Notes under the pieces: generated by a model
The model's database searches: none
Seen by the model: the letters and a program-made list of their open reading frames with translations, nothing else
Told to the model about the DNA's origin: nothing
Translations under genes and position numbers: made by a program
Shown: piece after piece, positions 9,386 through 44,323 of the stretch
How positions within the stretch are numbered: the first letter of the stretch is position 1
Layout: the number at the start of each line of letters is the position of its first letter
Assembly: GCA_964389975.1 (NCBI GenBank)
Contig: CAYMGJ010000002.1
Span: 3,109 to 67,108 of the forward strand
Origin: an uncultured Candidatus Saccharibacteria bacterium
Lineage (GTDB): Bacteria > Patescibacteriota > Minisyncoccia > Phycocordibacterales > PALSA-1337
Reading direction: 5' to 3'
DNA: 64,000 nt

Positions 9386-9458
9386 GCCAATGTAGCTCAG
9401 TTGGTAGAGCACGCCCATGGTAAGGGCGAGGTCATCGGTTCAATCCCGATCATTGGCT
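9386..9458 (+). tRNA. tRNA-Thr (anticodon GGU)
   Basis: Acceptor GCCAATG/CATTGGC, anticodon stem CGCCC/GGGCG with loop ATGGTAA, T-arm ATCGG-TTCAATC-CCGAT. Confidence 0.9.
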
Positions 9459-9472
9459 CCCGAGTGCACTGT

Positions 9473-9545
9473 GCCAAAGTAGCTCAGTTGGTAGAGCATC
9501 ACTTTCGTAAAGTGAGGGTCGCCGGTTCAATCCCGGCCTTTGGCT
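9473..9545 (+). tRNA. tRNA-Thr (anticodon CGU)
   Basis: Acceptor GCCAAAG/CTTTGGC, anticodon stem TCACT/AGTGA with loop TTCGTAA, T-arm GCCGG-TTCAATC-CCGGC. Confidence 0.9.
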
Positions 9546-9548
9546 CAT

Positions 9549-24513: not shown

Positions 24514-25023
24514 ATGAGTATGAAAAAGGTAATGGTCAATGACATGATGCAAAGTGGGTATGAATATGAGCTCACTGAGCCTATGGGAAAAAACTTTGAT
24601 TCTGAGTTCAATCCTGAACTTACCCCACAAGAGATGCTGGAACTCGGAGTCTTCGGTGGCAAGTATATGACCGATTGCAAAGATGAATTTCCTTCAGATT
24701 GGTTTACTCATGCAAAGCTCTGTCATGAGAAGCATGATGCCCAACTCAATCTCTTTGGTGCCAATGCAAGTCAGCCACTCTCAATATGGAAAGCAAAGGG
24801 ATGGATTTACAAAGATGATCCTCGTGGATGGTTTCAATGGTATTGTCGCTACTATATGGGACGACGTATACCAGAAGAAGATACACGACAAATACAGAGA
24901 TGGAAAGCTATACGAAGACATATTGTGCAGGTGAAAAACAATTGCAGGGAAGGAGATATTTTCTGTAGGGCACGTCAACGTCAGGCGATTCTTCACTGGG
25001 CATATGATAGCAGGAGGATATAG
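24514..25023 (+). CDS. Hypothetical Trp/Tyr/Arg-rich protein (conserved-looking, unassigned)
   Basis: 169 aa; motifs ELGVFGGKYM, RGWFQWYCRYYMGRR, RWKAIRRH; divergent from the flavoprotein gene with a 22-nt spacer; GC-richer. Confidence 0.45.
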   Translation: MSMKKVMVNDMMQSGYEYELTEPMGKNFDSEFNPELTPQEMLELGVFGGKYMTDCKDEFPSDWFTHAKLCHEKHDAQLNLFGANASQPLSIWKAKGWIYKDDPRGWFQWYCRYYMGRRIPEEDTRQIQRWKAIRRHIVQVKNNCREGDIFCRARQRQAILHWAYDSRRI

Positions 25024-25052: not shown

Positions 25053-28000
25053 ATGCTAATATATACACATATGCATCCCCGTCAAACAATTCTTGGTCTC
25101 TTTCTCAGTGTTGCTCTCGTATCGGTATTCATATATACAAGTATTAATCTCCTTGAACCATCTCTTGTTCAGCCTACATCTCAGCCTGCAGCAGTTTCAG
25201 ATTTCAACTCATCCCTCATTGCCCACTACACTTTCGATGATGGAACAGCAACTGATGCAACGGGGTCACATGCAGGAACAGTTTCAGGAGCTACAGCAAC
25301 AGAAGGAAAGATTGGTGGAGCACTTGCTTTTGATGGTGCAACTAACTATGTAGATCTTGGTGACATGACTGCAGTGGAAGGGCAAAGTGCTCTTTCAGTA
25401 TCTATGTGGGTAAAGAACAATGCTTCTGCTAATGTTTCAGGAGGGGATACTATGATATCCAAGGAAGGTTCAGGAGCTGATACTCTCTCCTTGTCATGGG
25501 CTCAAAATGAAGACGTATCATTTTGTCTTGTAGGTAGTACATCAGGTGTGAGTTGTGGTGGAGCAGATACCGCAACCGCATCATATGTTGATGGTATTCC
25601 CGAGGGAAGTGGTACTAATTGGAATCACATTGTTGGAGTTCTCGATTCTGGTACAGTTAAAGTATATGTAAATGGTATTCAAGGGGGAGTGGCAGGAACT
25701 CTTTCTTCCCCTACTCAAAACAGTGTTCATTCTCTTAAAATTGGTTCCACATGGGCAGGCTCCATCGACGATGTCCGTATCTACAACAAAGCACTATCTA
25801 CTCAAGAAATTGCAGATCTCTATGCACTTGGTGGAGGAGTGGTAGGTCAAGCACCACCACCTCCCGTTACACCACCAACAGATCCTGCTACCCCTCCTGT
25901 TACACCACCAGTTACCCCACCCACCACTCCTCCTGTACAAGAAGTGAGTGTACGAAGTACTGCTCCATCTCCTGTATCATGGACTCCTCCCATTGGTATT
26001 CCTGAACCTCCATTTGGTATTCGTGAATCTCACTATATGTATCAATTAGGTACCAATGAAACTTGTACTACTACTCCTCACAAATGCTATGACTTCGGCT
26101 CAGGTCTTGAACCATATCGTGATGCTGGTGCTGGGCCATATACTCATTATATTGATCCAAGCTCTCCTTCATGTACCAATACTTCAAATCCCTATGGAAC
26201 GAAGACAAAGCCGAGGTGTGGAATACCTGCTATGACAAGTATTGTTCCTGGGTCTGTTGTTGAATTACATGGAACGTATGACAGGACAAATGCGGGGAAT
26301 CTCTGGACATTCACTGTTCATGGTACTTTAGAGAAACCAATTTTTGTTCGTGGAGAATCTCAGCAAAACAAAGTTGCCATTACAAATATACCTTTACGAG
26401 TCAGATCTTCATATACCATTTTCGAGAATCTCCATATGATAACGGGTAAGGTTGATATTCGTGCTGCAGATGCTGTAGAAAATGTCTCATATGTTTCTCT
26501 ACGACATTCTGATCTTACCAATGAATCGTCAACGGGTGTTAATGGGTATACTAATAACGCTTCAAAGTATGTAGTCTTCTTTGACAACAAGGTGTATACG
26601 GATAACTTTGATCTTAATGGCCCTGAATTTCCTGAACGTGATGTCCATGGAATTGGTTTTGCTGCATACGCAGAAAATGTATGGATTGTGGACAATGATA
26701 TTCGAGGAATGTCAGGTGATGCCATTGGTAATGGTCATGGGGGACAATATACAGTGAAGAATTTCTATATCGGACGAAATCTTCTCCATGATACTGGAGA
26801 AAATGCCGTTGACCTCAAAGAGGTTGAAAACTTTGTTGTGTCTCAAAACAAAATGTATAACTTTAAAGGCCTTTCATCAGGATCTGATGGTGGTGCTGTC
26901 GTTATCCACTACGGGCCAGCTGTTTCTCCCAAGAATGCATGGTTTCTCTTCAATGAGATATATAATGCAACGGATGTCGGAATTCAAGTGGGTGGAGATC
27001 AGGTCTATGATTCATTTTTCATAGGTAATATTGTTCACGATATTCATAATTCATCACTTACTGGTCTTGCATTCACAACGTGGAATAGTTGTACGATGTA
27101 TTTTGTCCATAATGTTTTCTACAACAATGATAACGGAGTGAAGGCCATGAGTTCTGGAGGCTGTACTAAGCTCATTTTTCAAAACAATATTGTATCGAAT
27201 TTCCAGAACCCAAATCCTATGGCATTTTCAATGACAAACAATGCTACTTTCCTCGCTGTCTCAAAGGTATCAAACAATATCTTCTATCAACCAGGAAAGA
27301 CCTTAAATGTAGTTTGTACTGGTTGCCTCGAATCTAACCCTCTCTTCAACAACCCTTCTTCAAATGATTTCTCACTACAATCAGGATCACCTGCAATCAA
27401 TACTGCTGACAATACGATTATGGAAGACCTCGCTTCCCGTTTCTATACATCCTATGGTATTGATATACGTAAAGATTTTCTAGGAAACAATCGAAGAGCA
27501 AATACACCATGGGATATTGGTGCATATGAATATGGAGCAACGGGTGGAACTCAACCACCTCCAGCTGTTGTTGTTCAACCAACAGACACCCTTCCTCCAA
27601 GTCCAGCAGGAATGGCTGTAACAAACATCACTTCAAACAGTGCTACTGTTTCGTGGAATACCTCTGAGGCAGGTACAACCCAAGTTGAATATGGCCTCAC
27701 TACTGCATATGGTAATACTACAACTCGAGTTTCAACATATACAACATCTCACACACAGAATCTCTCAAATCTCCAAGGGAATACCCTCTACCACTATCGT
27801 GTAATATCTCTCGATCAAGCAGGGAATGTAGGTATTTCTCCTGATCAAACCTTCACCACCCTTACCTCAACAGACAATGATGGTGATGGTGTGCTCAATG
27901 CAGTTGATCGATGTCCACTTACACCTTCTTCATTGAGAACTATGGTTAATACCTATGGATGTCCTCTTCCTCGCACTACTCGATTCACTCTTTCTCTTAA

Positions 28001-28916
28001 TCTTGCATCACAAGATCTCATTTCTGTACCCGCATTTGATATTTCCAATACCTATGGAAAAATTAGCTACTCACAAACTTCAAATCCCTACAAACTCATA
28101 CGTAATACTGATGATCAGATTGATATTGATTCAAACCTCACCATTACCAAAGGATTGGTATCACTTGATTCAACACAACTTCCTGAACTCAACAAACGAG
28201 CTACCATTACTCTCTACAATCTCAATATCACGTCACCTCGAATCCTCAAGGATGGAAATGTATGTAGTGGATGTACCTTCATCTCATACACCAATGGAAC
28301 ACTCATATTCTCTGTACCAAGCTTCTCTACCTACAGTGTCATAGATGATTCAGATCCCACCCCAACAACCCATACTGTTTCAGTTACCAAGATGGGTTCA
28401 GGTACCGGTACGGTAACTGGTACAGGCATATCATGTGGAAGTGATTGTTCTGAAACCGTATCATCAAGTATCACTCTCACTGCATCTCCATCATCAGATT
28501 CAACATTCTCTGGATGGTCAGGAGGATACTGTACAGGTACTTCATCATGTACTATCACTCCTTCTTCTGATATCACCATCATAGCTACCTTCGCCTATGT
28601 CCCTACGGTTGCTCTTCCAGAACCTAGTATTTCTCCATCTCCCCGTATTTCCCCCGTTATCACCACTCCTTCTCCTTCCATATCTCCACGAAGTATATCA
28701 ATCACACCTCTTCCTCGTGTATCACCTGTTGTTACTCCTACAAAAACATTGAAACCAGATCTTGTTCTTGAAGATACCACCCCTCTACCTGAATTCTTAG
28801 TACCAACCCTATGGGAGCAATTCATTGCATATATACAGCATGTATATCAAGTATCACTCTCTCTCATTACTACAACATGGATGAGAATATGGGGTGGGGT
28901 TGTTAGTATATTTTAA
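25053..28916 (+). CDS. Giant secreted multi-domain protein: LamG-like jelly-roll, Pro/Thr linker, right-handed beta-helix (pectate-lyase-like) module, fibronectin-III, TSP3-like Ca-binding motif, conserved C-terminal tail
   Basis: 1287 aa; signal/anchor N-terminus; LamG pattern (YTFDDGTATD...LSVSMWVK...VYVNG...DDVRIYNKALS); PbH1-like repeats (NNIVSNF, GNIVHDI); Fn3 (SATVSWNTSEAGTTQVEYGLTTAYG...YHYRV); DNDGDGVLNAVDRCP; tail TTTWMRIWGGVVSIF. Confidence 0.85.
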   Translation: MLIYTHMHPRQTILGLFLSVALVSVFIYTSINLLEPSLVQPTSQPAAVSDFNSSLIAHYTFDDGTATDATGSHAGTVSGATATEGKIGGALAFDGATNYVDLGDMTAVEGQSALSVSMWVKNNASANVSGGDTMISKEGSGADTLSLSWAQNEDVSFCLVGSTSGVSCGGADTATASYVDGIPEGSGTNWNHIVGVLDSGTVKVYVNGIQGGVAGTLSSPTQNSVHSLKIGSTWAGSIDDVRIYNKALSTQEIADLYALGGGVVGQAPPPPVTPPTDPATPPVTPPVTPPTTPPVQEVSVRSTAPSPVSWTPPIGIPEPPFGIRESHYMYQLGTNETCTTTPHKCYDFGSGLEPYRDAGAGPYTHYIDPSSPSCTNTSNPYGTKTKPRCGIPAMTSIVPGSVVELHGTYDRTNAGNLWTFTVHGTLEKPIFVRGESQQNKVAITNIPLRVRSSYTIFENLHMITGKVDIRAADAVENVSYVSLRHSDLTNESSTGVNGYTNNASKYVVFFDNKVYTDNFDLNGPEFPERDVHGIGFAAYAENVWIVDNDIRGMSGDAIGNGHGGQYTVKNFYIGRNLLHDTGENAVDLKEVENFVVSQNKMYNFKGLSSGSDGGAVVIHYGPAVSPKNAWFLFNEIYNATDVGIQVGGDQVYDSFFIGNIVHDIHNSSLTGLAFTTWNSCTMYFVHNVFYNNDNGVKAMSSGGCTKLIFQNNIVSNFQNPNPMAFSMTNNATFLAVSKVSNNIFYQPGKTLNVVCTGCLESNPLFNNPSSNDFSLQSGSPAINTADNTIMEDLASRFYTSYGIDIRKDFLGNNRRANTPWDIGAYEYGATGGTQPPPAVVVQPTDTLPPSPAGMAVTNITSNSATVSWNTSEAGTTQVEYGLTTAYGNTTTRVSTYTTSHTQNLSNLQGNTLYHYRVISLDQAGNVGISPDQTFTTLTSTDNDGDGVLNAVDRCPLTPSSLRTMVNTYGCPLPRTTRFTLSLNLASQDLISVPAFDISNTYGKISYSQTSNPYKLIRNTDDQIDIDSNLTITKGLVSLDSTQLPELNKRATITLYNLNITSPRILKDGNVCSGCTFISYTNGTLIFSVPSFSTYSVIDDSDPTPTTHTVSVTKMGSGTGTVTGTGISCGSDCSETVSSSITLTASPSSDSTFSGWSGGYCTGTSSCTITPSSDITIIATFAYVPTVALPEPSISPSPRISPVITTPSPSISPRSISITPLPRVSPVVTPTKTLKPDLVLEDTTPLPEFLVPTLWEQFIAYIQHVYQVSLSLITTTWMRIWGGVVSIF
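28089..28565. repeat. 477-bp perfect direct repeat, copy 1 (inside giant gene 1)
   Basis: Identical at nucleotide level to 34175-34650 (offset 6086 bp); encodes the KLIRNTDDQIDIDSN...SGWSGGYCTGTSSCTITPS segment. Confidence 0.85.
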
Positions 28917-28950
28917 TGATTGATTTCCCCAACCTCTTTGTGATTGATGT

Positions 28951-28966
28951 GGGGTATAATAGAGGG
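28951..28966 (+). promoter_or_regulatory. Conserved GGGGTATAATAGAGGGG motif 6 nt upstream of ATG (combined -10-like TATAAT and purine-rich SD-like element)
   Basis: Near-identical motif recurs at 35084-35099 upstream of the third giant gene. Confidence 0.3.
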
Positions 28967-28971
28967 GTACT

Positions 28972-31900
28972 ATGAATACACAAAAAAACACCCTCGCTCT
29001 TGCGACATTATCTTTATTAATAATTACGAGTATAGTTTTTGTTTCCCGAGAGATATTCTCTCCATCACAAGAAATTGTAATGGATGCAATCGATCATAAA
29101 GCGGCGGTAGCAGATTTTGACAATGCTCTCATTGCAAAATTTTCTTTTGAAGAAGGAAGTGGAAATACAACCACTGATTCCATAGGTTCTCGAACAGGGA
29201 CATTAACAAATGGACCTTCGTGGATATCGGGCAAGGTGGGGAGTGGGGCCCTCTCATTTGATGGGGTGGATGACTTTGTTGACGCGGGAGATATTACGTC
29301 TGCAGGGGGAGTTGGTTCTCTCAGTGTTGCGGTATGGGTAAAACCGAGTTCATCTTCTGGTTCACTATCTGTTGTTACCAAATCACGTAGTGGTTTTACA
29401 TCATGGCAAATTGCTCGTAGTGCACAAGGTCGTTACTATTTCGCAACAGGGAATGAAACAGGATCATTTGTATATGCAGCTTCGGATTCTTTCTTTCCTG
29501 ATACTGATTGGCATCATGTTGTGGGTGTATATGATGGTGCCCATGCCAATGTGTATGTCGATGGAGTCGCTGTCATAGCTAACCCTCCAGCTCTCACAGG
29601 TACAATGAAGAGTGTTCCATATCCAGTATGTATTGGAGGAACTGCTGATGGGGGAGGGGCAAAATGTATTTCTGGTATGGCTGGTTCTGTTGATGATTTC
29701 CGTATATATAATAGGGCGCTTACAGATCAGGAAATCTCAGACCTCTATGTAGCTGGTGGCGGTAGTCTTGGTCCCGATGTAACATCTCCTACGATTTCAT
29801 TGACCCCTCTTGTTTCAACCACAGATCTCAAAGATTCACTTACCCTCGAAGCATCTGCATCTGACAATATTGGAGTTGCTGGTGTTCAGTTTAAAGTTGA
29901 TGGAGATGATATTGGAAATGAAGATACCACAACTCCATACTCTGTATCATGGAATACAACAACTGTTCCTAACGGTAGCCATACACTAACAGCAGTTGCG
30001 CGTGATGATGCAGGTAATACTAAGACATCAGCAGAAATTATTGTGACCGTAACAAATCCTCTCGATGTAACAAATCCAACCGTATCGGTTACTTCATCAG
30101 GTGGTACTAAATCAGGTACAATCACCATAACTGCAGACGCATCCGATGATCGTGGTGTTGCTGGCGTACAATTCAAGATTGATGGTAATGATTTAGAGAC
30201 AGAAGACGTCACTGCCCCATATTCAGTATCACTTGATACAACCCTCTATTCAAATGCAAGCCATTCCCTCACTGCTCTAGCTCGTGATGGGGCTGGTAAT
30301 ACAACAGAATCAAGTGCTGTGACCATAACTATTTTAAACACAGACACAACACCACCTACTGTATCAAATCCTCTTCCAACTGGAGTCATTTCACGAAATC
30401 TTACCCAAGCAACACTCCAGGTTACAACAAATGAATATGCTACGTGTCGATATTCAACAACTGCAAATATACCCTATGCATCAATGGTATCGGGTAACAC
30501 ATTCTCAACGGTAAGTGGATCTCTTCATACAAAGAGTGTTCCTGTTTCAATCAACACATCATATACATACTATGTTCGTTGTATTGATCAATCATCAAAT
30601 CCAACACTTTCTGATACAACAATTACATTTAGAACACCTGCCGCTACACCCGCAAATCAAGTTGTTATAGATTCAAGTTCTCTCATCGATGTGCCTACAG
30701 CAGCTCTCTGGGCTCGACGTGTTAACTTTAGTCCAAGTGATGGGGAAACTGTAAAGGCAAATCCCCCTGCATTTAGTTGGTTATATCGTCCAAATCTCGA
30801 ACTTGAAGTTCAACCATGGTTGCGAGACAGAAAGATATACCTCTTTGTATTTCAGGCAGCGTATAGTGAGGCAGACCTTAGAGCATCACGAAATCTTGCG
30901 GTCAATGTTCTTACACGTTCAAATGCATACAATTTCCTTGATGAATTTACCCCAGGGTCAACAGTGTATTGGCGCATTGGATATATCGTTGATACAAGTA
31001 TTGGTGAAAATGTTCCCAATGGTCTTGATCGTAATTTTGTAAGTACAACATCGGTTGCTACAATTGCTCCTTTTCAATCTCAGGCTGTATGGGGTGCAGT
31101 GCGAAGTTTTACTATCGATGACAATGCTATTTCATGGGATCGATCAATGCTTGCAGATGAAACATACCTTGCATCAAAGTCACATCCCCGAATATTTTTT
31201 AACAACAATAACAAGGCTGCATTTTGGACAACGACACAACAAGATCCAGATTGGTCACGTGTAAAGACATATCTTGATAGTCAGATTATTAATCCTTCCG
31301 TATGGAGTCATTCATACATTGGAAACATTACATGGGATGGTGGAATGCTTCTTGCTGCAGATGCCTTTATGTGGCAAATGACAGGGGATCAGAAATATCT
31401 TAATAATTTGTCTCCAAAGCCTCAAGAACTTCTTGTAACATATGCACAGGCGTATATCAGTTCAGGAGCATTTATGGAAGATATGGATACCGCAGGACGA
31501 GGTAGTCAGATATATTACGTTGGTCTTGCATATGATTGGCTCTATGATGTTATGACTGAGGAGCAACGAACCCTTGTTCGTCAGGCTATAGAAACTCAAC
31601 AGCAATTCCATCTTTACGCAGCAACATTCTCTGCGGGTCCTAATAGTGGATGTGGGTATCCCCTTGAATCAACCGATGATCCCAAGAGAAATCTCTATCC
31701 TCTCGGACGAAAAACAACTGAAGGATGTTATATGTATGGTTCAGAAAGTCATCAATACCATGGTGTTCATCAGACACTTGTAGGAGCTCTTGCTGCATAT
31801 ACAGAGAGTCCTGTATCACGAAAAACTCTCGAACTTCTTCTTGGTATGATGATCGGTCGTCCTCTGTTTAATGCTGTTGAAGGAGTCGATGGGGGAGGTG

Positions 31901-34900
31901 CGTATATTGGTTTGTACGAAACCATATTCCTCAAGGGTCTTCTTCGCTCAACATCAGTATTCCCTGAAGCCCATCTCGAACGGAACCCATTCTTGAGAAC
32001 AAGTGCAGATTGGTTTAGTCGTATACGTCCTGTTGGAGCAGAGACAGAAATGTTTCTCTGGGGAGATGCTTCTGGTAGTGGAGTAGTTGATTGGAATTAT
32101 TTCGGATACACCTTGTCAGGAATGACGGGGCTTAATTGGGTTGCCCAGCATTACAACAATCAAAGGGCAATTAATCCTCTCAATGAATTCTATTCGATAA
32201 ATCAAGATGGTGTGTTCTTGTTTGAAAAATATGCAGCAAAGAGATACTTTTCAACATTCTCTACAAAGTCAGAAACGCGCCCTCTCGCACAAGTGTTTCC
32301 TGCTGGTGGGTGGGTTCTTGCTTGTACATATCAATCAACTGATCCACGTTGTTTCAAGCAAGGTCTTGGTTTTGCTTTTGCTGCACGCCCTACTGTGAAT
32401 GGTGGTCACGCTGCTAATGCAGAAGGTTCATATGAACTATGGGCATACGGTCAAACAATTACAGAAAATGGTTCAATGCAGTGGTTTCATAACAAGAATG
32501 CTGCAAACCACAACCTCATTCTTGTAAATGGAGCTGGGCCATACCAGTATGACAAAGCGTTAGCATATGCACGAATCTTTGCATTTGATGATGGTAATTC
32601 AGCTTCAATACCTTATGTCTATGCAGCAAGTGATACGTCTGATTCATATCAACTTCTTCCTACAGGAAAAGAGGTGACTGTACGAAAGGCAAATCGTCAC
32701 TTCCTCATGGTGAAGAACAAGTATTTCGTTGTGTTTGACGATCTTGAAACAGCACAACCTGCAAAATTTACATCTGTATATCACGTACTTGATGATCCTC
32801 TCACTAAAGACCAGACAAAACCAGCGACATATTCATATGTTAAAACACGAACTTCAGCTCGTCTTGCGACAACACCTGGACGATTCTCATATTACAATCC
32901 AACGCCAGTTAAGGTATATGTTGCTGATACAGCACATACAACAGATGGATCTCTCGAGGTTCTTTACAGAAGTGGGGCAACTGATCTCTCTACAAACCCT
33001 ATTTCAGGTCAGATTATTGGAGAAATAGATCAACGTTCTTCATACTGTTATCTTCCAAATTATCTTGATAGCGGAAATTGTTCTGATGCCCGAAAGAATT
33101 CAGTATGGATATCAAACAAAAATGATTCAAATACATATAACTTCTTGAAAGTTATATACCCTCAGAAGCCTGGTACAAATGAAACTCCAGTTATAGAGAG
33201 ACTTGATGACTATACTGTAAGTGTGACTGATAGTAGTGGTACAGATATTATTTCATTCAATACTGACTCAGCTTCTCAGTACGGTGCAAATCTTGTTGTT
33301 GATACAGCTACTCTCGTACCACGTCCTGTTCCAGATGGAGGATTCGGAGTGAGACTTACCCCACGAACAGGTTCATATCCTGTTGTTGCTATCACCTCAC
33401 CAATTTCAGGGACAACACGAAGCGACCCTGCTTCATTCACTATTACCGCAACAGCTACTGATGCTGACGGCACTGTGTCTAAAGTTGATTTCTATAACGG
33501 AACAACAAAGATTGGTACTGATACAACTTCTCCATATTCATATACATGGTCAGCTGTTACTGCTGGTTCATACACTCTCTATGCACGAGCAACTGATAAT
33601 TCAGGTAATGTGGGGTCATCAGTAGGTGTTTCAGTTACTGTTACAGGGACTTCATTACCCACCGACACCACCCCTCCAACCATCTCTAACATTACGGTAA
33701 GCAACACAACAACAAGTGGTACTACCATCTCATGGACAACAAATGAAAACTCAACAACTCAAATTGAATATGGTCTCACCACAGGATATGGAAGTGTCAC
33801 TCAGTTCATAGCTACACCAAGTCTCAATCACTCACAAACAATCTCAGGTCTACAAGGTAATACGGTATATCACTACCGTGTAGCATCTCATGATGCAGCT
33901 GGTAATGAAGTACTGTCTCCTGATCAAACTTTCACCACCCTTACCTCAACAGACAATGATGGTGATGGTGTACTCAATACCGTTGATCGATGTCCACTTA
34001 CACCTCCTTCTCTCAGAAGTGTTGTAAATACCTATGGATGTCCTCTTCCTCTCCTTACCTCAAACAAGTTCCCAACAGTAACTGATCTTGCTAACAAAGA
34101 CATTACCGCACTCACTACACTTGAGCTTGGTAATACCTATGGAAAGGTAACCTATGGAGACACCGGCACCCCTTACAAACTCATACGTAATACTGATGAT
34201 CAGATTGATATTGATTCAAACCTCACCATTACCAAAGGATTGGTATCACTTGATTCAACACAACTTCCTGAACTCAACAAACGAGCTACCATTACTCTCT
34301 ACAATCTCAATATCACGTCACCTCGAATCCTCAAGGATGGAAATGTATGTAGTGGATGTACCTTCATCTCATACACCAATGGAACACTCATATTCTCTGT
34401 ACCAAGCTTCTCTACCTACAGTGTCATAGATGATTCAGATCCCACCCCAACAACCCATACTGTTTCAGTTACCAAGATGGGTTCAGGTACCGGTACGGTA
34501 ACTGGTACAGGCATATCATGTGGAAGTGATTGTTCTGAAACCGTATCATCAAGTATCACTCTCACTGCATCTCCATCATCAGATTCAACATTCTCTGGAT
34601 GGTCAGGAGGATACTGTACAGGTACTTCATCATGTACTATCACTCCTTCTGCTGACGCTACTGTCATTGCTAATTTCGACGCAATCCCTGTTGCTCCTGT
34701 CATTCAGACACGTACCACAGGTGGATCAGGTGGTGGATCATCACGCACAACAACAAATACCATTACAACACCTGTATCTAATCCATATACTCCAAAGACA
34801 CAGAAGACCGTCACAACAAACCCCTATGTAAAGTCACAAACATCTCCAAAGACTACCGTAGGAACTCCTTCAATTAATATTCCCGATGACAACATCACAC

Positions 34901-35055
34901 CTGAAGACTCTGAACCATTCCCAACCTTCGTTGTGCCAACTATGTGGGAACAGATTACTGCATATATACAGCATGTATATCAGACATCAATCTCTCTCAT
35001 TACTACAACATGGATGAGAATATGGGGTGGGGTGGTGGGTCTCATCGGTAACTAG
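28972..35055 (+). CDS. Giant secreted multi-domain protein: LamG-like, three bacterial Ig-like repeats, alginate-lyase/heparinase II/III-like polysaccharide lyase region, further Ig-like repeats, Fn3, TSP3-like motif, paralogous C-terminal module
   Basis: 2027 aa; LamG (FSFEEGSGNTTTD...VAVWVK...VYVDG...DDFRIYNRALT); Ig repeats (GVAGVQFKVDGDDIG...TTPYSVSWNTT); heparinase-like WFHNKNAANHNLILVNGAGPYQYD; Fn3; DNDGDGVLNTVDRCP; tail TTTWMRIWGGVVGLIGN. Confidence 0.85.
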   Translation: MNTQKNTLALATLSLLIITSIVFVSREIFSPSQEIVMDAIDHKAAVADFDNALIAKFSFEEGSGNTTTDSIGSRTGTLTNGPSWISGKVGSGALSFDGVDDFVDAGDITSAGGVGSLSVAVWVKPSSSSGSLSVVTKSRSGFTSWQIARSAQGRYYFATGNETGSFVYAASDSFFPDTDWHHVVGVYDGAHANVYVDGVAVIANPPALTGTMKSVPYPVCIGGTADGGGAKCISGMAGSVDDFRIYNRALTDQEISDLYVAGGGSLGPDVTSPTISLTPLVSTTDLKDSLTLEASASDNIGVAGVQFKVDGDDIGNEDTTTPYSVSWNTTTVPNGSHTLTAVARDDAGNTKTSAEIIVTVTNPLDVTNPTVSVTSSGGTKSGTITITADASDDRGVAGVQFKIDGNDLETEDVTAPYSVSLDTTLYSNASHSLTALARDGAGNTTESSAVTITILNTDTTPPTVSNPLPTGVISRNLTQATLQVTTNEYATCRYSTTANIPYASMVSGNTFSTVSGSLHTKSVPVSINTSYTYYVRCIDQSSNPTLSDTTITFRTPAATPANQVVIDSSSLIDVPTAALWARRVNFSPSDGETVKANPPAFSWLYRPNLELEVQPWLRDRKIYLFVFQAAYSEADLRASRNLAVNVLTRSNAYNFLDEFTPGSTVYWRIGYIVDTSIGENVPNGLDRNFVSTTSVATIAPFQSQAVWGAVRSFTIDDNAISWDRSMLADETYLASKSHPRIFFNNNNKAAFWTTTQQDPDWSRVKTYLDSQIINPSVWSHSYIGNITWDGGMLLAADAFMWQMTGDQKYLNNLSPKPQELLVTYAQAYISSGAFMEDMDTAGRGSQIYYVGLAYDWLYDVMTEEQRTLVRQAIETQQQFHLYAATFSAGPNSGCGYPLESTDDPKRNLYPLGRKTTEGCYMYGSESHQYHGVHQTLVGALAAYTESPVSRKTLELLLGMMIGRPLFNAVEGVDGGGAYIGLYETIFLKGLLRSTSVFPEAHLERNPFLRTSADWFSRIRPVGAETEMFLWGDASGSGVVDWNYFGYTLSGMTGLNWVAQHYNNQRAINPLNEFYSINQDGVFLFEKYAAKRYFSTFSTKSETRPLAQVFPAGGWVLACTYQSTDPRCFKQGLGFAFAARPTVNGGHAANAEGSYELWAYGQTITENGSMQWFHNKNAANHNLILVNGAGPYQYDKALAYARIFAFDDGNSASIPYVYAASDTSDSYQLLPTGKEVTVRKANRHFLMVKNKYFVVFDDLETAQPAKFTSVYHVLDDPLTKDQTKPATYSYVKTRTSARLATTPGRFSYYNPTPVKVYVADTAHTTDGSLEVLYRSGATDLSTNPISGQIIGEIDQRSSYCYLPNYLDSGNCSDARKNSVWISNKNDSNTYNFLKVIYPQKPGTNETPVIERLDDYTVSVTDSSGTDIISFNTDSASQYGANLVVDTATLVPRPVPDGGFGVRLTPRTGSYPVVAITSPISGTTRSDPASFTITATATDADGTVSKVDFYNGTTKIGTDTTSPYSYTWSAVTAGSYTLYARATDNSGNVGSSVGVSVTVTGTSLPTDTTPPTISNITVSNTTTSGTTISWTTNENSTTQIEYGLTTGYGSVTQFIATPSLNHSQTISGLQGNTVYHYRVASHDAAGNEVLSPDQTFTTLTSTDNDGDGVLNTVDRCPLTPPSLRSVVNTYGCPLPLLTSNKFPTVTDLANKDITALTTLELGNTYGKVTYGDTGTPYKLIRNTDDQIDIDSNLTITKGLVSLDSTQLPELNKRATITLYNLNITSPRILKDGNVCSGCTFISYTNGTLIFSVPSFSTYSVIDDSDPTPTTHTVSVTKMGSGTGTVTGTGISCGSDCSETVSSSITLTASPSSDSTFSGWSGGYCTGTSSCTITPSADATVIANFDAIPVAPVIQTRTTGGSGGGSSRTTTNTITTPVSNPYTPKTQKTVTTNPYVKSQTSPKTTVGTPSINIPDDNITPEDSEPFPTFVVPTMWEQITAYIQHVYQTSISLITTTWMRIWGGVVGLIGN
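34175..34650. repeat. 477-bp perfect direct repeat, copy 2 (inside giant gene 2)
   Basis: Identical to 28089-28565; flanks are similar but diverged. Confidence 0.85.
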
Positions 35056-35083
35056 TTCTCCCCATAGTTTGATACTGGGTGAG

Positions 35084-35099
35084 AGGGTATAATAGGGGT
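35084..35099 (+). promoter_or_regulatory. Conserved GAGGGTATAATAGGGGTA motif 5 nt upstream of ATG
   Basis: Same motif as at 28951-28966. Confidence 0.3.
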
Positions 35100-35103
35100 A
35101 TAT

Positions 35104-37263
35104 ATGAAAATACGAATATATCATATAGTTTTCATCCTCCTCGCTTTTTTCTTGGTCACTCAGTCAGTCCAAGCTTTTAGTTTGTTTACTCCAAAAAAAT
35201 CTCTCACCTCAGGTCTTGTAGGATGGTATACATTTGATGGTAAGGATATAACAAATGGGAGAATCAACGATGTGTCGGGTAATGGGAATAATGGTGTTGT
35301 TTCAAATATTTCAACATCAACTTTCTATGTATCAGGAAAGGTGGGGCAGGGGATAAAATTAGATGGAACTGATGACTTTATAAAACCAGGTATATTTACT
35401 GATGGTCAATCTGTCCTCACTGTTTCTTTTTGGATTAAGTCAAATGCAAGTACTAATCCAGGTATTCCCATATCAAAGGGGCGATTTGCTGCTGCAACAG
35501 CTGGTTCATGGGACTTTCAGAGATCTGGTGCTGGAACTTGGTCTATGAACCTTGCAAATTCAAGCGCAGCTGTGGTTACTGCAAATGGACCAAGTGCGCA
35601 TAACAATACTAATTGGCAATTCGTAACGGGAGTATATAATGGTTCAACTGTAACACTCTATGTAAATGCAGTTGCTGGAACTCCTGTTGCTCAAACTGGT
35701 GCTGTACAGACAGCACTCTCATATCCCATCTGCATTGGTGCTATAAATGGTGACTCGAGTGGTACTTGTAGTCAATCAAGATTTGCTGGAATTATAGATG
35801 ATATACGTATTTACAATCGAGCACTCTCAGCAAGTGAAGTTCTTCAGCTTTACAATCAGGGAGGAGGAAACAAACAGAATGTTGTTGCAAAAAATTCTCT
35901 TACCTCAGGTCTTGTGGGTTGGTGGACTTTTGATGGGAAGGATGTGGTTAATGGGAGAGCGAATGATGTGTCAGGCAACGCGAATCATGGTCGTTTGATT
36001 AGTATTTCAACCTCCACTTTCTATACCACAGGGAAAATTGGACAAGGGTTTAGATTTGATGCCATCGATGACTATGTTGATGTTGGTGATTTGAGTGGGG
36101 TTGAAGGAAAAACTGCTTTAACAGTATCTGCATGGGTCAAAAGTACAGAAACAGAAAATGTTTCTGGAAGTGATATGATTATTAGTAAAACTGGATCAGG
36201 TTCAGATACTTTCGAAATGTATTGGGAGCAGAACGAAAGTGTTAGTTTTTGTGTAGTTGGTTCTTCTGGTACTAGTTGTGGAGGAGCAGATACAGCTATC
36301 GCTTCGTATGCAAGTGGTATACCAATTGGGTCTGGGAAAAATTGGTACCATATTGTCGGAGTATATGATTCTGTTTCAAGTATTGTTAAGGTATATGTAA
36401 ATGGTGTGCAAGGCGGTGTTACCGGATCCCTCTCTTCTCTCACTCAGAATAGTACACATACCATAAAGATTGGGAATTCATGGTCTGGAACGATTGATGA
36501 TGTTCGCATTTATAGTCGAGCCCTCTCAGCAAGTGAAGTTCTCCAGCTTTACAATCAAGGGGGAGGAACCAAACAGAGTGTTGTTGCAAAAAATTCAGTA
36601 ACTTCAGGAATTATAGGGTGGTGGACGTTCGATGGAAAAGATATGGTGAATGGCGTGGCTGTAAATTTAGCAACAACCTCAGCTTTCTACGGTAGACCTT
36701 CAAATATCTCAACTTCTACCTTCTATACCTCAGGTAAACTCGGTCAAGCGTTGAGATTTGATGCAACCGATGACACTATGGTTGCGGGGGATATGACAAA
36801 TGCTGATAACGTAAGTGTCTTAACTACTTCAGTTTGGGTTAAGCCAGCGGTTGCTGATACATCTGCGATTACGTTTTTCTCAAAAACTAGAGGGGGTTTT
36901 GATACTTGGTTTCTTGCACGAAATGGCTTTGAAAATTTTTGGGCAGAGATGTGCAGTGCTTCTACGTGTGTTGATGCGATAAGTGATGCTACGTTTGCAG
37001 ATACCAATTGGCATCATCTTGTTAGTGTGTACAACGGAACAGATCTCCGTCTTTATGTTGATGGCGTTCTTGCTGATTCAACCCCACCATCTCTAACGGG
37101 GACGATAAAGGACAGGTCAGATAGTATATGCTTCGGTGGTACGTGGAATGGATCAAGTTGTAGTCAGTCGTATACGGGTGGTGGGCTCCTTGATGATGCA
37201 CGTATTTATAGTAGAGCTCTTTCAGCAAGTGAAGTGCTACAGTTGTATAATCAAGGGAAATAG
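35104..37263 (+). CDS. Secreted protein of four tandem LamG-like (concanavalin-A-like lectin) domains
   Basis: 719 aa; signal peptide MKIRIYHIVFILLAFFLVTQSVQAFS; four repeats each ending in a near-identical DD(I/V)RIY(N/S)RALSASEVLQLYNQGGG unit. Confidence 0.85.
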   Translation: MKIRIYHIVFILLAFFLVTQSVQAFSLFTPKKSLTSGLVGWYTFDGKDITNGRINDVSGNGNNGVVSNISTSTFYVSGKVGQGIKLDGTDDFIKPGIFTDGQSVLTVSFWIKSNASTNPGIPISKGRFAAATAGSWDFQRSGAGTWSMNLANSSAAVVTANGPSAHNNTNWQFVTGVYNGSTVTLYVNAVAGTPVAQTGAVQTALSYPICIGAINGDSSGTCSQSRFAGIIDDIRIYNRALSASEVLQLYNQGGGNKQNVVAKNSLTSGLVGWWTFDGKDVVNGRANDVSGNANHGRLISISTSTFYTTGKIGQGFRFDAIDDYVDVGDLSGVEGKTALTVSAWVKSTETENVSGSDMIISKTGSGSDTFEMYWEQNESVSFCVVGSSGTSCGGADTAIASYASGIPIGSGKNWYHIVGVYDSVSSIVKVYVNGVQGGVTGSLSSLTQNSTHTIKIGNSWSGTIDDVRIYSRALSASEVLQLYNQGGGTKQSVVAKNSVTSGIIGWWTFDGKDMVNGVAVNLATTSAFYGRPSNISTSTFYTSGKLGQALRFDATDDTMVAGDMTNADNVSVLTTSVWVKPAVADTSAITFFSKTRGGFDTWFLARNGFENFWAEMCSASTCVDAISDATFADTNWHHLVSVYNGTDLRLYVDGVLADSTPPSLTGTIKDRSDSICFGGTWNGSSCSQSYTGGGLLDDARIYSRALSASEVLQLYNQGK

Positions 37264-37280
37264 AAATATTTCATATGTTA

Positions 37281-37310
37281 AACAACCGCTGATAGTATCA
37301 GCGGTTGTTG
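37281..37310. terminator. Perfect 13-bp palindromic hairpin between convergent genes (probable bidirectional terminator)
   Basis: AACAACCGCTGATA-GT-ATCAGCGGTTGTT. Confidence 0.5.
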
Positions 37311-41017: not shown

Positions 41018-41398
41018 ATGAATGAAGATGAATTAAAGAAGAAATTAACCCCAGAACAGTACAAGGTGCTTCGAGAGAAAGGTACTGAAGCACCTTTCTC
41101 TGGTAAATATATTCATGAAAACAAAGATGGTATATATACCTGTGTTGTCTGTGGCAACAAACTCTTCTCTTCTCAAGCTAAATTTGATTCAGGTACAGGT
41201 TGGCCAAGTTTCGATCAAGCTTTACCGGGCGCTGTCAAAATGAACGAGGACATTAGTCATGGAATGCATAGGGTTGAAATTATATGTGCCCAGTGTAACT
41301 CTCATCTCGGACATGTTTTTGATGATGGACCTACAAAAACAGGTAAACGATATTGTCTTAATTCCGTGTGTCTTGATTTGAAAACCGATGAACACTAA
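41018..41398 (+). CDS. msrB: Peptide methionine (R)-sulfoxide reductase
   Basis: 126 aa; two CxxC zinc motifs (CVVCGNKLF...CAQCNSHLGHVFDDGP) and the catalytic RYCLNS region. Confidence 0.95.
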   Translation: MNEDELKKKLTPEQYKVLREKGTEAPFSGKYIHENKDGIYTCVVCGNKLFSSQAKFDSGTGWPSFDQALPGAVKMNEDISHGMHRVEIICAQCNSHLGHVFDDGPTKTGKRYCLNSVCLDLKTDEH

Positions 41399-42188
41399 TT
41401 TTTCTAAAGATATTCATAAGGCATTAGCTTTCGATCTTGATGGGACTCTTGCAGAGAGCAAGAATGATATGACGGAAGAAATGGGAAGTGTACTTGCTTC
41501 ACTTCTTACGTATATGCCTTTGGCGATAGTATCGGGGGCATCAAAGAATCAGTTTATGTCCCAGTGCATTCAACATATTCCTGCTTCTGAAGATCAATTT
41601 AAAAATCTATACCTCTTTCCTGAAAATGGAGCATCTCTCTATGTATTCAGACATGGTGGATGGGTTGCTCATTATGAAGAGAATCTTTCTGATATTCAAA
41701 AGACAAAAATCATGTCGGTTTTAGGAGAAGTTATCCATATCTTCGGACTTCATGAAATTGATGGTTTTGGTCCTCTCATAGAAGATCGGGGAGCTCAGAT
41801 TACTCTCTCATGTCTTGGACAGCATGCATCACTTGAGGCAAAAACCGCATGGGATCCTGATCAGAACAAGAGAAGAGATATGCTTTCATATATGCAACCT
41901 CTCTTACCTGATTTCGATATTAAAATGGGTGGAGCAACTTCAGTTGATATCACGAAGAAGGGAACTAACAAACATTATGCACTTACTATGTATTTGAAAT
42001 TACTCTCCCTCAATCAATCAAATGTACTGTACTATGGAGATGCCATCTTCCCTGGAGGAAATGACTATATTGTAGAAGAGTTCGGGTATCCGTATGTTCA
42101 TGTGCATAATCCACAGGAAACCCTTGAATCTCTCCGTGGTATACTACAAGAGTATGAAAAAACTACTCGAAGAGAGACCCTGGGGTAA
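41388..42188 (+). CDS. HAD-superfamily hydrolase, subfamily IIB (sugar-phosphate phosphatase-like)
   Basis: 266 aa; motif I AFDLDGTLAE, cap domain, motif IV GDAIFPGGND. Confidence 0.75.
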   Translation: MNTNFSKDIHKALAFDLDGTLAESKNDMTEEMGSVLASLLTYMPLAIVSGASKNQFMSQCIQHIPASEDQFKNLYLFPENGASLYVFRHGGWVAHYEENLSDIQKTKIMSVLGEVIHIFGLHEIDGFGPLIEDRGAQITLSCLGQHASLEAKTAWDPDQNKRRDMLSYMQPLLPDFDIKMGGATSVDITKKGTNKHYALTMYLKLLSLNQSNVLYYGDAIFPGGNDYIVEEFGYPYVHVHNPQETLESLRGILQEYEKTTRRETLG

Positions 42189-42495
42189 TTTTGTTCGCTA
42201 TACACATAATGAACAAACAACGGTAAAGATAATTACAATTAAGCCTGGAGAGGGTCTGTCTTTACAGTCTCATGAAAAGCGTCGAGAGTTCTGGAGAATA
42301 TTAAAAGGTCGACCACATATAGTACTTGGTGATACAGAGATAGATGCTGTGTCTGGAGATGAGTTTGAAATTCCTGAAAGAACTCTCCATCAAATTTCAA
42401 GTATTAATGATGAGGTTCAATTTCTCGAAATTGCATTTGGAGAATTTGATGAGAATGATATTATGCGAATTAGTGATCGATATGGCAGAGCTTAA
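42154..42495 (+). CDS. Cupin-domain protein resembling the type II mannose-6-phosphate isomerase C-terminal domain
   Basis: About 113 aa from MKKLLEERPWGNF; cupin motifs IKPGEGLSLQSHEKRREFWRIL and EIPERTLHQISSIND; the track ORF starts earlier, overlapping the HAD gene. Confidence 0.6.
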   Translation: MKKLLEERPWGNFVRYTHNEQTTVKIITIKPGEGLSLQSHEKRREFWRILKGRPHIVLGDTEIDAVSGDEFEIPERTLHQISSINDEVQFLEIAFGEFDENDIMRISDRYGRA

Positions 42496-44320
42496 AGATC
42501 ATCTTGTACCTGTTGGTGTACTTTCACGAAATGAATCAATTGGACTTTTGGGCTACTATTCCAAGGACTCAAAAGGTTATTTCTATTTCTCATGGAGTGA
42601 TGATGGAGTCTCATTCGAAACTGATACCAAGAGAGTCCGTTTTATGAAGGGGAGAGTATCTCACGGAGCTCATGAATGTTCACATTTTCGTTTTTCATAT
42701 GCAAAGCTCTATATAGCTACCTATATACGCACCTTTGAATCTCAATCATATCTCTGTGTTGCTCAATCAAAAGACTTATATACATGGGAGGTTGTATCAG
42801 AAATGGAAGCTATGAAGGCTCCTGCTGTTCTTGTTTCTGATATGACAATTAAGAAAGAGAGAGTTATCTACCACGGTGGGGCATTCATACGATGTCTAAC
42901 ATCAAGAGATATGAAGCTGTGGAGCGATGACGATCATCTTCTTGCAACTTCACGATATGGTTTTTTTGATGAAGGATCTCTCAATCTCATTCAAACTATG
43001 CCTCATAAAGAGGGAACTCTCCTTCTCTATGAGACAAAGGAATACAAAGATGATGTATATAGTTTGTGTATTGGAAGTATCCTTTTTGATTATGAAAATC
43101 CACGTCGTATCCGTAGTCGTTCTCGTGAGCCTATGTGGAAAAGTGAAATGCTATTCCCCCGTGATGTGTCATGTACTCTCATAGGTTCTGTATCTATCGG
43201 AACCATTCTCTACGTCTTCTGGTCAACCCCCTATGATCTCATCATTGCAAAGATTGATAATCTAAGCTCTATTGTAGAAATATATCGTGGTGTAGGTACC
43301 ATCATGACAAAACATGAGGACAATCCAATCAAGGAACCACACCCACATCATTCATGGGAGAATGAATCTGTATGCAATCCTGCCGCTCTCTATGATGGTA
43401 AGACTATCCATCTTCTCTATCGAGCTATGGGTTCTGATGGTATATCGAGAATTGGATATGATAGCAGTGTTGATGGATTTAATTTCAAAGGATCACTCCC
43501 ATACCCTATCTATGCAATGAAAAATCCACGTATGGCTGTACAAGTTCCAACGCGTTCTCAACATATGAATACAAGTATATCGGGTGGTAGTTGGGGAGGT
43601 GCAGAAGACCCACGCGCAGTATCTATTGATGGAAAAATTTATGTAACATTCAATGCTTTTGATGGTTGGGATTTCATACGTATCTGTGCCATCTCAATTG
43701 ATGAAAAAGATTTTAAGAAGAAGAAATGGAATTGGTCGAGTCCAGTATTCATATCTCCTCCTCATGAGATTCATAAGAACTGGGTTTTGTTTCCTGAGAA
43801 GATCAATGGAAAATTTGCGGTGATTCATAGTATTAACCCACGTGTTCAAATTGATTACTTTGATTCTTTTGGTGATTTTGAAAAAGGAAAAAAGAAGATA
43901 CGAAGTGCATTTGGAACAAAGGTACCACGAGATTCATGGGATACATGGGTGCGGGGAGCTGGTCCTCCTCCCCTTAAGACCGACAAGGGATGGCTTGTTT
44001 TCTATCATGCCATGGACAAAGAAGAACCTCATATTGGATACAAATTAGGTGCTCTGCTACTTGATCTTGATAATCCGGAGAAGATAATTGCACGTGCGAA
44101 GGCTCCAGTGCTCTGTCCTGATCAGTGGTATGAAAATGAATACAAGTTTGGTGTCGTCTATGCATGCGGTGCTGTAGTTAAAGACAATACACTTTTCATA
44201 TATTATGGAGGTGGTGATCGTCATGTTTGTGTAGCTTCTGCGCCCTTTGACGTCTTTATGGAGAAACTTATAAAAGATACTCCGGTGTCGCTTAATCAGT
44301 CAATTATTAATCGAATATAG
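42482..44320 (+). CDS. Tandem double GH130-like (glycoside phosphorylase/hydrolase, DUF377) beta-propeller protein
   Basis: About 613 aa from MAELKDH; two modules each with the ...DPR... and C-terminal YYGGGD / hydrophobic pattern (GAEDPRAVSIDGKIYVTFNA; LFIYYGGGDRHVCVASAP); the track ORF start at 42344 runs through the cupin stop region and is unsupported. Confidence 0.7.
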   Translation: MAELKDHLVPVGVLSRNESIGLLGYYSKDSKGYFYFSWSDDGVSFETDTKRVRFMKGRVSHGAHECSHFRFSYAKLYIATYIRTFESQSYLCVAQSKDLYTWEVVSEMEAMKAPAVLVSDMTIKKERVIYHGGAFIRCLTSRDMKLWSDDDHLLATSRYGFFDEGSLNLIQTMPHKEGTLLLYETKEYKDDVYSLCIGSILFDYENPRRIRSRSREPMWKSEMLFPRDVSCTLIGSVSIGTILYVFWSTPYDLIIAKIDNLSSIVEIYRGVGTIMTKHEDNPIKEPHPHHSWENESVCNPAALYDGKTIHLLYRAMGSDGISRIGYDSSVDGFNFKGSLPYPIYAMKNPRMAVQVPTRSQHMNTSISGGSWGGAEDPRAVSIDGKIYVTFNAFDGWDFIRICAISIDEKDFKKKKWNWSSPVFISPPHEIHKNWVLFPEKINGKFAVIHSINPRVQIDYFDSFGDFEKGKKKIRSAFGTKVPRDSWDTWVRGAGPPPLKTDKGWLVFYHAMDKEEPHIGYKLGALLLDLDNPEKIIARAKAPVLCPDQWYENEYKFGVVYACGAVVKDNTLFIYYGGGDRHVCVASAPFDVFMEKLIKDTPVSLNQSIINRI

Positions 44321-44323
44321 TAT

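Follow-up and report, generated by a model that had tools for sequence, protein, structure and literature searches.

Tandem LamG proteins of a Saccharibacteria bacterium: a probable surface glycan apparatus with a PL15-type lyase module and a Nup98/ZU5-type domain

Three tandem genes, here called P1, P2 and P3, lie within a 64,000-nucleotide stretch of DNA (hereafter the window) from an uncultured Candidatus Saccharibacteria bacterium (assembly GCA_964389975.1, contig CAYMGJ010000002.1). We consider that they probably form a three-gene, likely co-transcribed unit for exported glycan-binding proteins of a Patescibacteria-type cell, with P1 and P2 built on a common stalk. A first-pass annotation of the same DNA had proposed exported LamG lectin proteins with carbohydrate-active modules, and the domain matches and the catalytic residues of a PL15-type module make a surface glycan apparatus the best-supported reading. 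Surface display, the class of substrate, the role of the anchor and the operon status are what we infer from the sequences.

In the proposed arrangement, P1 would combine a LamG lectin with a beta-helix carbohydrate-active module, P2 would join LamG and Ig-like spacers to a PL15-type exo-lyase module with an intact catalytic His/Tyr/His, and P3 would be a secreted lectin of three LamG repeats. The Pro/Ser/Thr-rich spacer in the C-terminal cassette that P1 and P2 have in common would cross the wall, and the terminal tail helix would tether each protein to the membrane or to a partner. The target glycan would be bound by the LamG domains, while the lyase, possibly together with the beta-helix, would cut a uronic-acid-containing polymer on a host cell, a capsule or a biofilm matrix.

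Exported LamG proteins in three tandem genes

The three genes are consecutive on one strand and have the lengths first annotated; their span of 12,211 nt is 19% of the window, in line with the earlier estimate of about 12 kb. The gaps are 55 nt between P1 and P2 and 48 nt between P2 and P3. The NCBI copy of P1 (P0001) begins at Met7, position 25071, and is 1281 amino acids (aa) long and otherwise identical; proteins identical to P1 and P2 are encoded on a 70.9-kb NCBI contig. P3 with its downstream neighbours has an identical copy on the 5-kb contig JACCEA012531206.1 (L001, GCA_013573075.1). The genes and their N-terminal features are as follows.

25053..28916, + strand: P1 gene, 1287 aa (open reading frame (ORF) list, translation)
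28972..35055, + strand: P2 gene, 2027 aa (ORF list, translation; identical protein P0121 in the representative library)
35104..37263, + strand: P3 gene, 719 aa (ORF list, translation)
25089..25145, + strand: P1 hydrophobic signal or signal-anchor (Kyte-Doolittle 19-residue mean 2.3, the highest value in P1)
25332..25814, + strand: P1 LamG domain (PF13385, 68.2 bits)
29263..29739, + strand: P2 LamG domain (PF13385, 88.6 bits)
35200-35868, 35899-36567 and 36592-37257, + strand: P3, three LamG repeats (PF13385, 226.9 bits, 3 stretches)

All three proteins begin with a signal or anchor and a LamG domain, as annotated. The most hydrophobic segment of each is N-terminal (Kyte-Doolittle 19-residue mean 2.0–2.3), and the LamG scores of 68.2, 88.6 and 226.9 bits compare with a Pfam gathering cutoff of 27.6 bits for PF13385 (Laminin_G_3). 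By eye, P3 has a cleavable-looking signal peptide with a canonical VQA/F signal-peptidase site (slash, cleavage point). No clear signal-peptidase (AxA) site was seen by eye in P1 or P2, and because such a site is not apparent these two proteins may retain an N-terminal signal-anchor. P3 was expected to hold four LamG repeats and contains three, seen both as Pfam stretches and as DNA repeats spaced 696–699 nt apart. Its second repeat is 56% identical to the P1 LamG domain and its third is 42% identical to that of P2, so that P3 looks assembled from duplicates of the lectin domains of its neighbours.

A PL15-type lyase module in P2

P2 is most likely still a lyase acting on a uronic-acid polymer of some kind, because its central module matches PL15 enzymes across the whole enzyme and conserves the His/Tyr/His of their catalytic site. 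The alginate-lyase/heparinase-like region of the earlier annotation is a true homologue of PL15-type lyases.

29794..30336, + strand: two Big_7 repeats of P2, with a third at 33379-33645 (PF17957, 144.8 bits, 3 stretches)
30676..33378, + strand: PL15-type lyase module of P2, ~900 aa (profile A2 against the PDB; DUF4962 32.3 vs 28.7 bits)
31750-31752 (His927), 31903-31905 (Tyr978) and 32407-32409 (His1146), + strand: catalytic-site residues of P2, invariant in A2

A four-sequence profile of the module (A2) matched the oligo-alginate lyase Atu3025 (3A0O) at E 1.1e-35 over chain residues 7–674 of 776, and the PL15_2 exo-heparinase BIexoHep (6LJA) at E 7.9e-27. When the region was scanned alone, the DUF4962 score was 32.3 bits (cutoff 28.7). 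P2 is collinear with the PL15 enzymes Atu3025 and BIexoHep over the N-terminal beta domain, the (alpha/alpha)6 toroid and the C-terminal antiparallel beta sheet; it differs from them in its low identity (~20–25%, estimated from the alignment) and in that its module is embedded in a 2027-aa surface protein. In Atu3025, the base is proposed to be His311 and the acid Tyr365, and the H531A exchange greatly lowers activity (PMC11921355). These residues, His311, Tyr365 and His531, align to His927, Tyr978 and His1146 of P2 and are invariant in the four sequences of A2. A word-indexed search found only three relatives of the module at E<=1e-5.

The bacterial Ig-like repeats ascribed to P2 are three Big_7 domains (PF17957), the boundaries of the two N-terminal ones being read from the sequence, and the Big_7 region gave Big/Fn3-like matches in the PDB. 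Between the two N-terminal repeats and the lyase module, positions 30343-30630 (residues 458-553) encode an Ig/Fn3-like segment (ATCRYSTTANIPYASM...YYVRCIDQSSN) without a Pfam match at E<=10. A motif of the ATCRYSTTANIPYASM/YYVRCIDQSSN type also ends the unrelated protein P0110.

A beta-helix module in P1

The middle of P1 is predicted to fold as a right-handed parallel beta-helix, and the term "pectate-lyase-like" that it had been given is justified for the fold alone.

25950..27587, + strand: right-handed beta-helix module of P1 (AlphaFold2 (AF2) model, pLDDT 76, pTM 0.85), ending in a choice-of-anchor Q cap
27339-27533 (residues 763-827), + strand: choice-of-anchor Q domain of P1 (NCBIfam NF041518, 31.2 bits vs cutoff 25)

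The central 546 residues matched no Pfam family at E<=10 save for a weak DUF5123 match; eight homologues of P1, 30–45% identical to it, carry PF13229 (Beta_helix). An AF2 model built on P1 homologues gave a parallel beta-helix (pLDDT 76, pTM 0.85). Foldseek placed this model against the PDB first with GH136 (1e-8) and PL9 Pel9A (1.5e-7), then with PL6 and AlgG. A nine-sequence profile of the family (A3) gave marginal PDB matches only. The fold is thus like that of the GH136 lacto-N-biosidase, Pel9A, the PL6 alginate lyase/chondroitinase B and the AlgG epimerase (Foldseek 1e-8 to 1e-4, TM 0.4–0.5). However, identity to these nearest folds is 9–16%, and P1 has neither a family assignment nor identified catalytic residues. 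Invariant Arg/Lys/Asp residues occur in the family alignment.

The beta-helix of P1 belongs to a widespread, apparently uncharacterised family. Its members are 27–49% identical (loci L003-L080), carry the marker WTPPIGIPxPxFGI...GPYTHYVD, and range over Planctomycetota, Phycisphaerae, Kiritimatiellota, sulfur-oxidising tubeworm endosymbionts, Saccharibacteria, Falkowbacteria, Woesearchaeota and Nanoarchaeia.

A C-terminal cassette common to P1 and P2

P1 and P2 end in a common cassette of 445 aa (P1 843-1287 and P2 1563-2025; 67% identity by BLASTP). A shared C-terminal tail had been described before, and its sequences are as quoted then; its extent was underestimated, since the tail is merely the end of this cassette. 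The order is Fn3, TSP3 repeat, Nup98/ZU5-type beta-sandwich, InlB-B repeat, low-complexity linker and predicted tail helix.

27600..27860, + strand: Fn3-like domain of P1 (fn3 27.2 vs 25; Pur_ac_phosph_N 36.3 vs 30); the cassette begins at ~27579
27864..27962, + strand: TSP3-type Ca-binding repeat of P1 (DNDGDGVLNAVDRCP...GC; PF02412 19.7 bits vs cutoff 25; the same motif region of NF053612 matched)
27972..28343 (residues 974-1097), + strand: Nup98/ZU5-type autoproteolytic-domain homologue of P1 (PF04096, 23.2 bits vs 28.4)
28377..28601, + strand: divergent InlB B-repeat (Flg_new_2) of P1 (PF18998, 28.1 vs 23.6)
28602..28790, + strand: Pro/Ser/Thr-rich linker of P1 (translation)
28791..28913, + strand: C-terminal tail of P1 (EFLVPTLWEQFIAYIQHVYQVSLSLITTTWMRIWGGVVSIF; low-confidence helix; ratio of nonsynonymous to synonymous divergence (dN/dS) 0.20 vs P2)
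33676..35052, + strand: cassette copy of P2, with a Nup98/ZU5-like domain at 34057-34428, a Thr/Asn/Lys-rich linker and the tail at 34921-35052
28089..28565, + strand: 477-nt block identical base for base to 34174-34650 (longest common substring; 100% protein and DNA identity over 30-codon blocks)

The Fn3 domain assigned to P1 is borne out by both Pfam scores. For the Ca-binding motif of P1 and P2, the motif itself stands complete (DNDGDGVLNxVDRCP...GC), and the PF02412 score falls short (16–19.7 bits against a cutoff of 25). Divergence along the cassette is uneven: the parts flanking the 477-nt block have synonymous divergence (dS) of 0.2–2.6, Fn3 has a dS of 1.2, and the linkers of P1 and P2 are 27–36% identical. 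The 477-nt identity reflects either gene conversion that took place recently or a collapse of the two copies in the assembly.

A Nup98/ZU5-type domain before the proposed anchor

The beta-sandwich of the cassette is homologous to the Nup98 autoproteolytic domain (APD), a relationship that we regard as solid on the strength of profile comparisons. The ~125-aa domain matches PF04096 (Nup98-Nup96 S59 autopeptidase) over nearly the whole model, below the cutoff. With a four-sequence profile there was no Nup98 match in the PDB and the hhalign probability was 9%; the Nup98 signal became clear once metagenomic relatives had been added. A metagenome scan with the four-sequence profile gave 24 loci, and a 17-sequence profile aligned with residues 732-894 of human NUP98, whose sequence was checked against the PDB, at an hhalign probability of 95% (E 3.8e-8). 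Searched against the PDB, the latter profile had Nup98 as its top match (2.7e-6), and Nup98/Nup116/Nup145 domains accounted for 21 of the 24 matches. PF04096 was found in 11 of the 17 family members, at best 3e-8, and was the sole recurrent Pfam family; NCBIfam has no model for this cassette domain.

The homology to the Nup98/Nup145/Nup116 APD (peptidase S59) extends over ~100 residues, with the shared segments YGkI.F, LNkpA.vTL and a terminal F.V.[H]F[S/T].Y. The prokaryotic homologues differ in being extracellular, in bacterial and archaeal surface proteins, and in having an invariant Cys pair, and P1 and P2 differ further in having SFS instead of HFS and in scoring, by themselves, under the PF04096 cutoff (23.2 vs 28.4 bits). 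The cleavage-site alignment is in register (NUP98 WVFKVSHF/SKYGL; P1/P2 LIFSVPSF-STYSV; a relative LIFTVPHF-STYEI), and the equivalent of the HF/S site is S1090-F1091-S1092 in P1 and Phe1813/Ser1814 in P2. The site Phe is invariant in the 17-sequence alignment A7. The motif [x]-F-[S/T]-x-[Y/F/W] is recognisable in 28 of 32 non-duplicate domain copies; of the others, three are divergent at that point and one is an ORF ending at the Phe. In the 28 motif copies the Phe is preceded by His (12 copies), Ser (8), Gly (6) or Arg/Glu (2).

The domain is distributed over bacterial and archaeal surface proteins. It occurs in named genomes outside the profile set, namely in a Saccharibacteria protein that combines it with LamG, a beta-helix and, after it, PG_binding_1, and in three Woesearchaeota ORFs, and in none of ~70 fetched beta-helix loci from outside the Candidate Phyla Radiation (CPR) and DPANN. 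In proteins with one copy it mostly stands last, or nearly last, among the globular modules ahead of the linker and anchor. The motif in the form [H/G/S]-F-[S/T]-x-[Y/F] is found in the window at 27972-28343 and 34057-34428 and also at loci L009, L019, L027 and L083-L106. Two independent metagenomic ORFs (L094 3-593 and L099 1-123) stop right after ...TVPGF, at the residue where Nup98 ends after cleavage. Giant ORFs of >2300 aa, rich in N-x-S/T, carry six (L101 717-8858), four (L105 1-7572) and two (L100 1-7137) copies, and these 2–6 copies per ORF suggest that the domain also serves as a repeated stalk module.

Self-cleavage of this domain would change how the proteins are held on the cell. 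An N-to-O acyl shift at Phe1091/Ser1092 in P1 and Phe1813/Ser1814 in P2 would yield an enzyme-bearing ectodomain and an anchored stub of ~195 aa; we find this doubtful, and give a similarly low chance to the further proposal that the two parts stay together non-covalently, as in Nup98-Nup96, GAIN and SEA, with shedding or force-dependent release. The homology to the APD with the scissile site in register, and a Ser or Thr after the conserved Phe in 28 of 32 copies, are what such a reaction would lead one to expect; P1 and P2, however, have Ser rather than His before the Phe, and Gly, Ser, Arg and Glu are common there in the family, even if His-Phe-Ser/Thr is the commonest single variant (12 of 28). 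The two ORFs that end precisely at the site Phe fit cleavage, as does the placement before linker and anchor, which is that of GAIN within adhesion G-protein-coupled receptors (GPCRs), whereas the 2–6 copies in some proteins look structural. A working prokaryotic HFS-type domain that cuts giant surface proteins of Patescibacteria and DPANN just outside the anchor is a tentative idea, with the balance of probability well against it.

A single ancient HFS autoproteolytic domain has been put forward as the common ancestor of Nup98, ZU5 and GAIN subdomain B (Liao et al. 2014, as cited in PMC10084454). The presence of the fold in prokaryotes is probably not new in principle. ZU5-like domains have reportedly been extended to bacteria and archaea, and the cleavage site is said to have decayed in many ZU5 domains.

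Glycan cutting, adhesion and the points against the proposed apparatus

A pure adhesin or a surface-coat scaffold, in which the beta-helix and PL15-like modules bind glycans without cutting them, is unlikely. P2 and its relatives keep all three residues of the PL15 catalytic site unchanged, which would be unexpected for a decayed enzyme, and this has to be set against the facts that beta-helices are often adhesins (PfbA is among the fold matches of P1), that the P1 module has no family-level match, and that the proteins are dominated by LamG and Ig-like domains.

Several observations nonetheless count against the exported glycan-binding and glycan-cutting apparatus that we favour. Uronate-utilisation genes were not seen among the Pfam-scanned ORFs of the window, and the beta-helix of P1 could be non-catalytic. 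Lacking an obvious signal-peptidase site, P1 and P2 could be membrane-associated at both ends. The tail is weakly hydrophobic (Kyte-Doolittle ~1.3), with an internal Arg and no basic end: the 21-residue mean for P1 is ~1.28 (own arithmetic), and P2 has a 19-residue mean of 1.34 and a Wimley-White octanol value of -6.3. Membrane insertion of the tail is uncertain because of this weak hydropathy and because the basic end of the relatives' anchors is missing from it. The AF2 model of the cassette, built on a two-sequence alignment, was poor (pLDDT 32), and its helix call alone was used.

The C-terminal tail as a predicted private helix

The tail is under purifying selection and is a private feature of two paralogues. 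It is 35–40 aa long, aromatic-rich and modelled, at low confidence, as one continuous helix (pLDDT 52–58). Within its 37-codon core, 31 residues are identical and seven differences are synonymous only, with dN 0.10 and dS 0.49 (dN/dS ~0.2); divergence at silent sites with a protein that is yet constant argues that the tail is functional.

Searches for further copies were negative. A hidden Markov model (HMM) of the two tails had no match besides P1 and P2 in a six-frame translation of the window. When 1.84 billion representative proteins, through which alone the rest of this genome was covered, were scanned exhaustively with HMMER, the tail was found in P1 and P2 only. Three further matches of that scan (P0122-P0124) were rejected as tail carriers, being translated tandem repeats that scored spuriously over 8–11 partial stretches. 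In 185,579 GTDB species genomes and in JGI metagenomes, back-translated patterns of the tail gave matches and no tblastn-confirmed relative; the genome that carries P1-P3 is evidently not itself a GTDB representative. None of 120 P1 homologues shares the ending of P1; their ends are dockerin-like, PG_binding_1, a C-terminal domain (CTD) of the type IX secretion system (T9SS), PEP-CTERM-like, a membrane helix with a basic segment, or LamG.

The first-pass annotation had held that the tail is not LPXTG, PEP-CTERM or T9SS, which agrees with our scans: regular expressions over the last 120 residues found none of these, and there was no Pfam match at E<=10. The string PEP occurs once, in the P1 linker ~100 residues before the C-terminus, and the last 12 residues hold one K/R. 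The same annotation had suggested a lineage-specific anchoring or sorting domain, and here the recurrence search returned P1 and P2 alone, the outcome named beforehand as speaking against it. By that prior criterion the sharing of the tail reflects paralogy and not a common sorting signal.

A lineage-specific signal read by dedicated machinery, in the manner of LPXTG/sortase, PEP-CTERM/exosortase or the T9SS CTD, is therefore improbable in our judgement. The tail shares with LPXTG, PEP-CTERM, PGF-CTERM and the T9SS CTD a place at the very C-terminal end, behind a low-complexity spacer; its purifying selection and the choice-of-anchor domain of P1 would also suit such a signal. Unlike these signals, the tail has no signature motif, no basic end, no family match and no recurrence, although such signals recur within and across genomes, and no processing-enzyme gene was found among the Pfam-scanned ORFs near the cluster or elsewhere in the window.

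The tail is instead probably a private anchor or docking helix, because relatives carry peptidoglycan-binding domains or membrane helices at that position. In the closest relatives of the cassette, a Gly/Ser linker leads to PG_binding_1 (CPR) or, in Woesearchaeota and others, to a membrane helix that has a Lys/Arg tail. For its mode of action, a weak membrane or interfacial anchor would have a little less than an even chance, and a docking or oligomerisation helix is possible at a clearly lower probability; a small remainder falls to a tail without a specific role.

Transcription and genomic surroundings of the cluster

P1, P2 and P3 are likely co-transcribed, because the intergenic gaps are short and a hairpin stands solely after P3.

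37281..37309, no strand: perfect 13-bp hairpin between the convergent P3 and FA_hydroxylase genes (folding free energy -23.4 kcal/mol, z -5.65)
28953..28965 and 35086-35098, + strand: GGTATAATAGRGG motif, 7-9 nt 5' of the P2 start, with the second copy before P3

The hairpin 3' of P3 is likely a terminator marking the end of the unit, and no comparable structure was found in the P1-P2 or P2-P3 gaps. A scan with consensus promoters and terminators performed no better than on shuffled sequence and missed this hairpin. The GGTATAATAGRGG motif had three matches at <=1 mismatch against 0.13 expected, and its sole two exact matches in the window are the sites before P2 and P3. It may be a -10 box fused with a Shine-Dalgarno/ribosome-binding site, which would imply very short leaders.

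The flanking genes are housekeeping genes by Pfam scan (HI0933-like flavoprotein, DEAD helicase, YibE/F and MsrA), and the CTP synthase of the window is 41% identical to a Falkowbacteria one. A prophage or a phage-derived depolymerase or tail-fibre region is very improbable, because PHROG matches, which include phage virion families (phrog_8510), are confined to the LamG domains, and the beta-helix tailspikes among the distant fold matches are outweighed by the secretion signals of the proteins, the housekeeping flanks and scanned ORFs free of phage structural or integrase genes.

Other features of the window were recorded alongside. A 169-aa ORF at 24514-25023, which contains RGWFQWYCRYYMGRR, ends 30 nt 5' of P1 and matched neither Pfam nor PHROG. 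With its first 167 nt it overlaps the TTG start annotated for the divergent HI0933-like gene, and that gene probably begins later than this TTG. Positions 41388-46255 hold a PMM-like HAD phosphatase gene and then two tandem genes for ~650-aa proteins with a C-terminal GH130 mannoside-phosphorylase domain, both with a ~340-aa N-terminal extension without a Pfam match. A 405-aa protein at 15636-16853, adjoining tRNA-Gln, has a C-terminal Shedu SduA nuclease domain (PF14082, 103 bits), and its gene is a candidate anti-phage defence gene. Five clustered tRNA genes (Met, Met, Asp, Thr, Thr) lie at 7740-9546, the two tRNA-Met(CAT) being ~840 nt apart.

Relation to other giant surface proteins and meaning of the cluster

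The glycan-apparatus reading matches the existing view of LamG proteins in CPR and DPANN. In the literature, concanavalin/LamG proteins already count as typical candidates for attachment in Patescibacteria and DPANN (PMC12911398, PMC7414124), and LamG homologues with a taxon name were assigned only to "Patescibacteria group bacterium" or to unclassified bacteria. The giant LamG proteins of CPR and DPANN resemble P1-P3 in their N-terminal signal, LamG domains, Ig/Fn3 spacers, very large size and tandem genes. In one Saccharibacteria locus (L009), a 1514-aa LamG protein is followed by a 1656-aa protein with LamG, beta-helix, Nup98-like and PG_binding_1 domains, and a Falkowbacteria locus (L013) has the tandem LamG, beta-helix and giant-LamG arrangement of P1-P3. 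The taxa of the named LamG homologues and the recurrence of this arrangement are indirect evidence that P1-P3 come from Patescibacteria. The best full-length relatives are 37–43% identical. P1 and P2 differ from these relatives at the C-terminal end, where they have an orphan helix and the relatives have PG_binding_1, dockerin-like or membrane-helix anchors, and the fusion of LamG with PL15 found in P2 has one database relative only (P0127).

Ultra-small episymbiotic bacteria have to recognise other cells and keep hold of them. The cluster offers a well-resolved case of their surface toolkit, in which lectins go together with a uronate lyase that seems intact and with a beta-helix module, so that there are testable substrates, and it illustrates how freely lineages exchange the C-terminal end by which such proteins are attached. 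If none of these readings holds, it would be one more set of CPR LamG proteins. Two features stand out: a PL15 lyase that seems intact, mounted on a lectin-bearing stalk, and a Nup98/ZU5-type domain placed just before the anchor that is common to giant proteins from CPR bacteria and from DPANN archaea. If the latter domain cleaves, it would add a new regulatory step to episymbiont adhesion and bear on the origin of the module of nuclear pores and adhesion GPCRs. The ectodomain, with its enzyme and lectin, would then be held non-covalently and could be shed, or set free under load, while the cell attaches to a host cell, as a bacterial and archaeal counterpart of the juxtamembrane autoproteolysis of adhesion GPCRs and mucins, and the domain would be a plausible prokaryotic source of that of Nup98.

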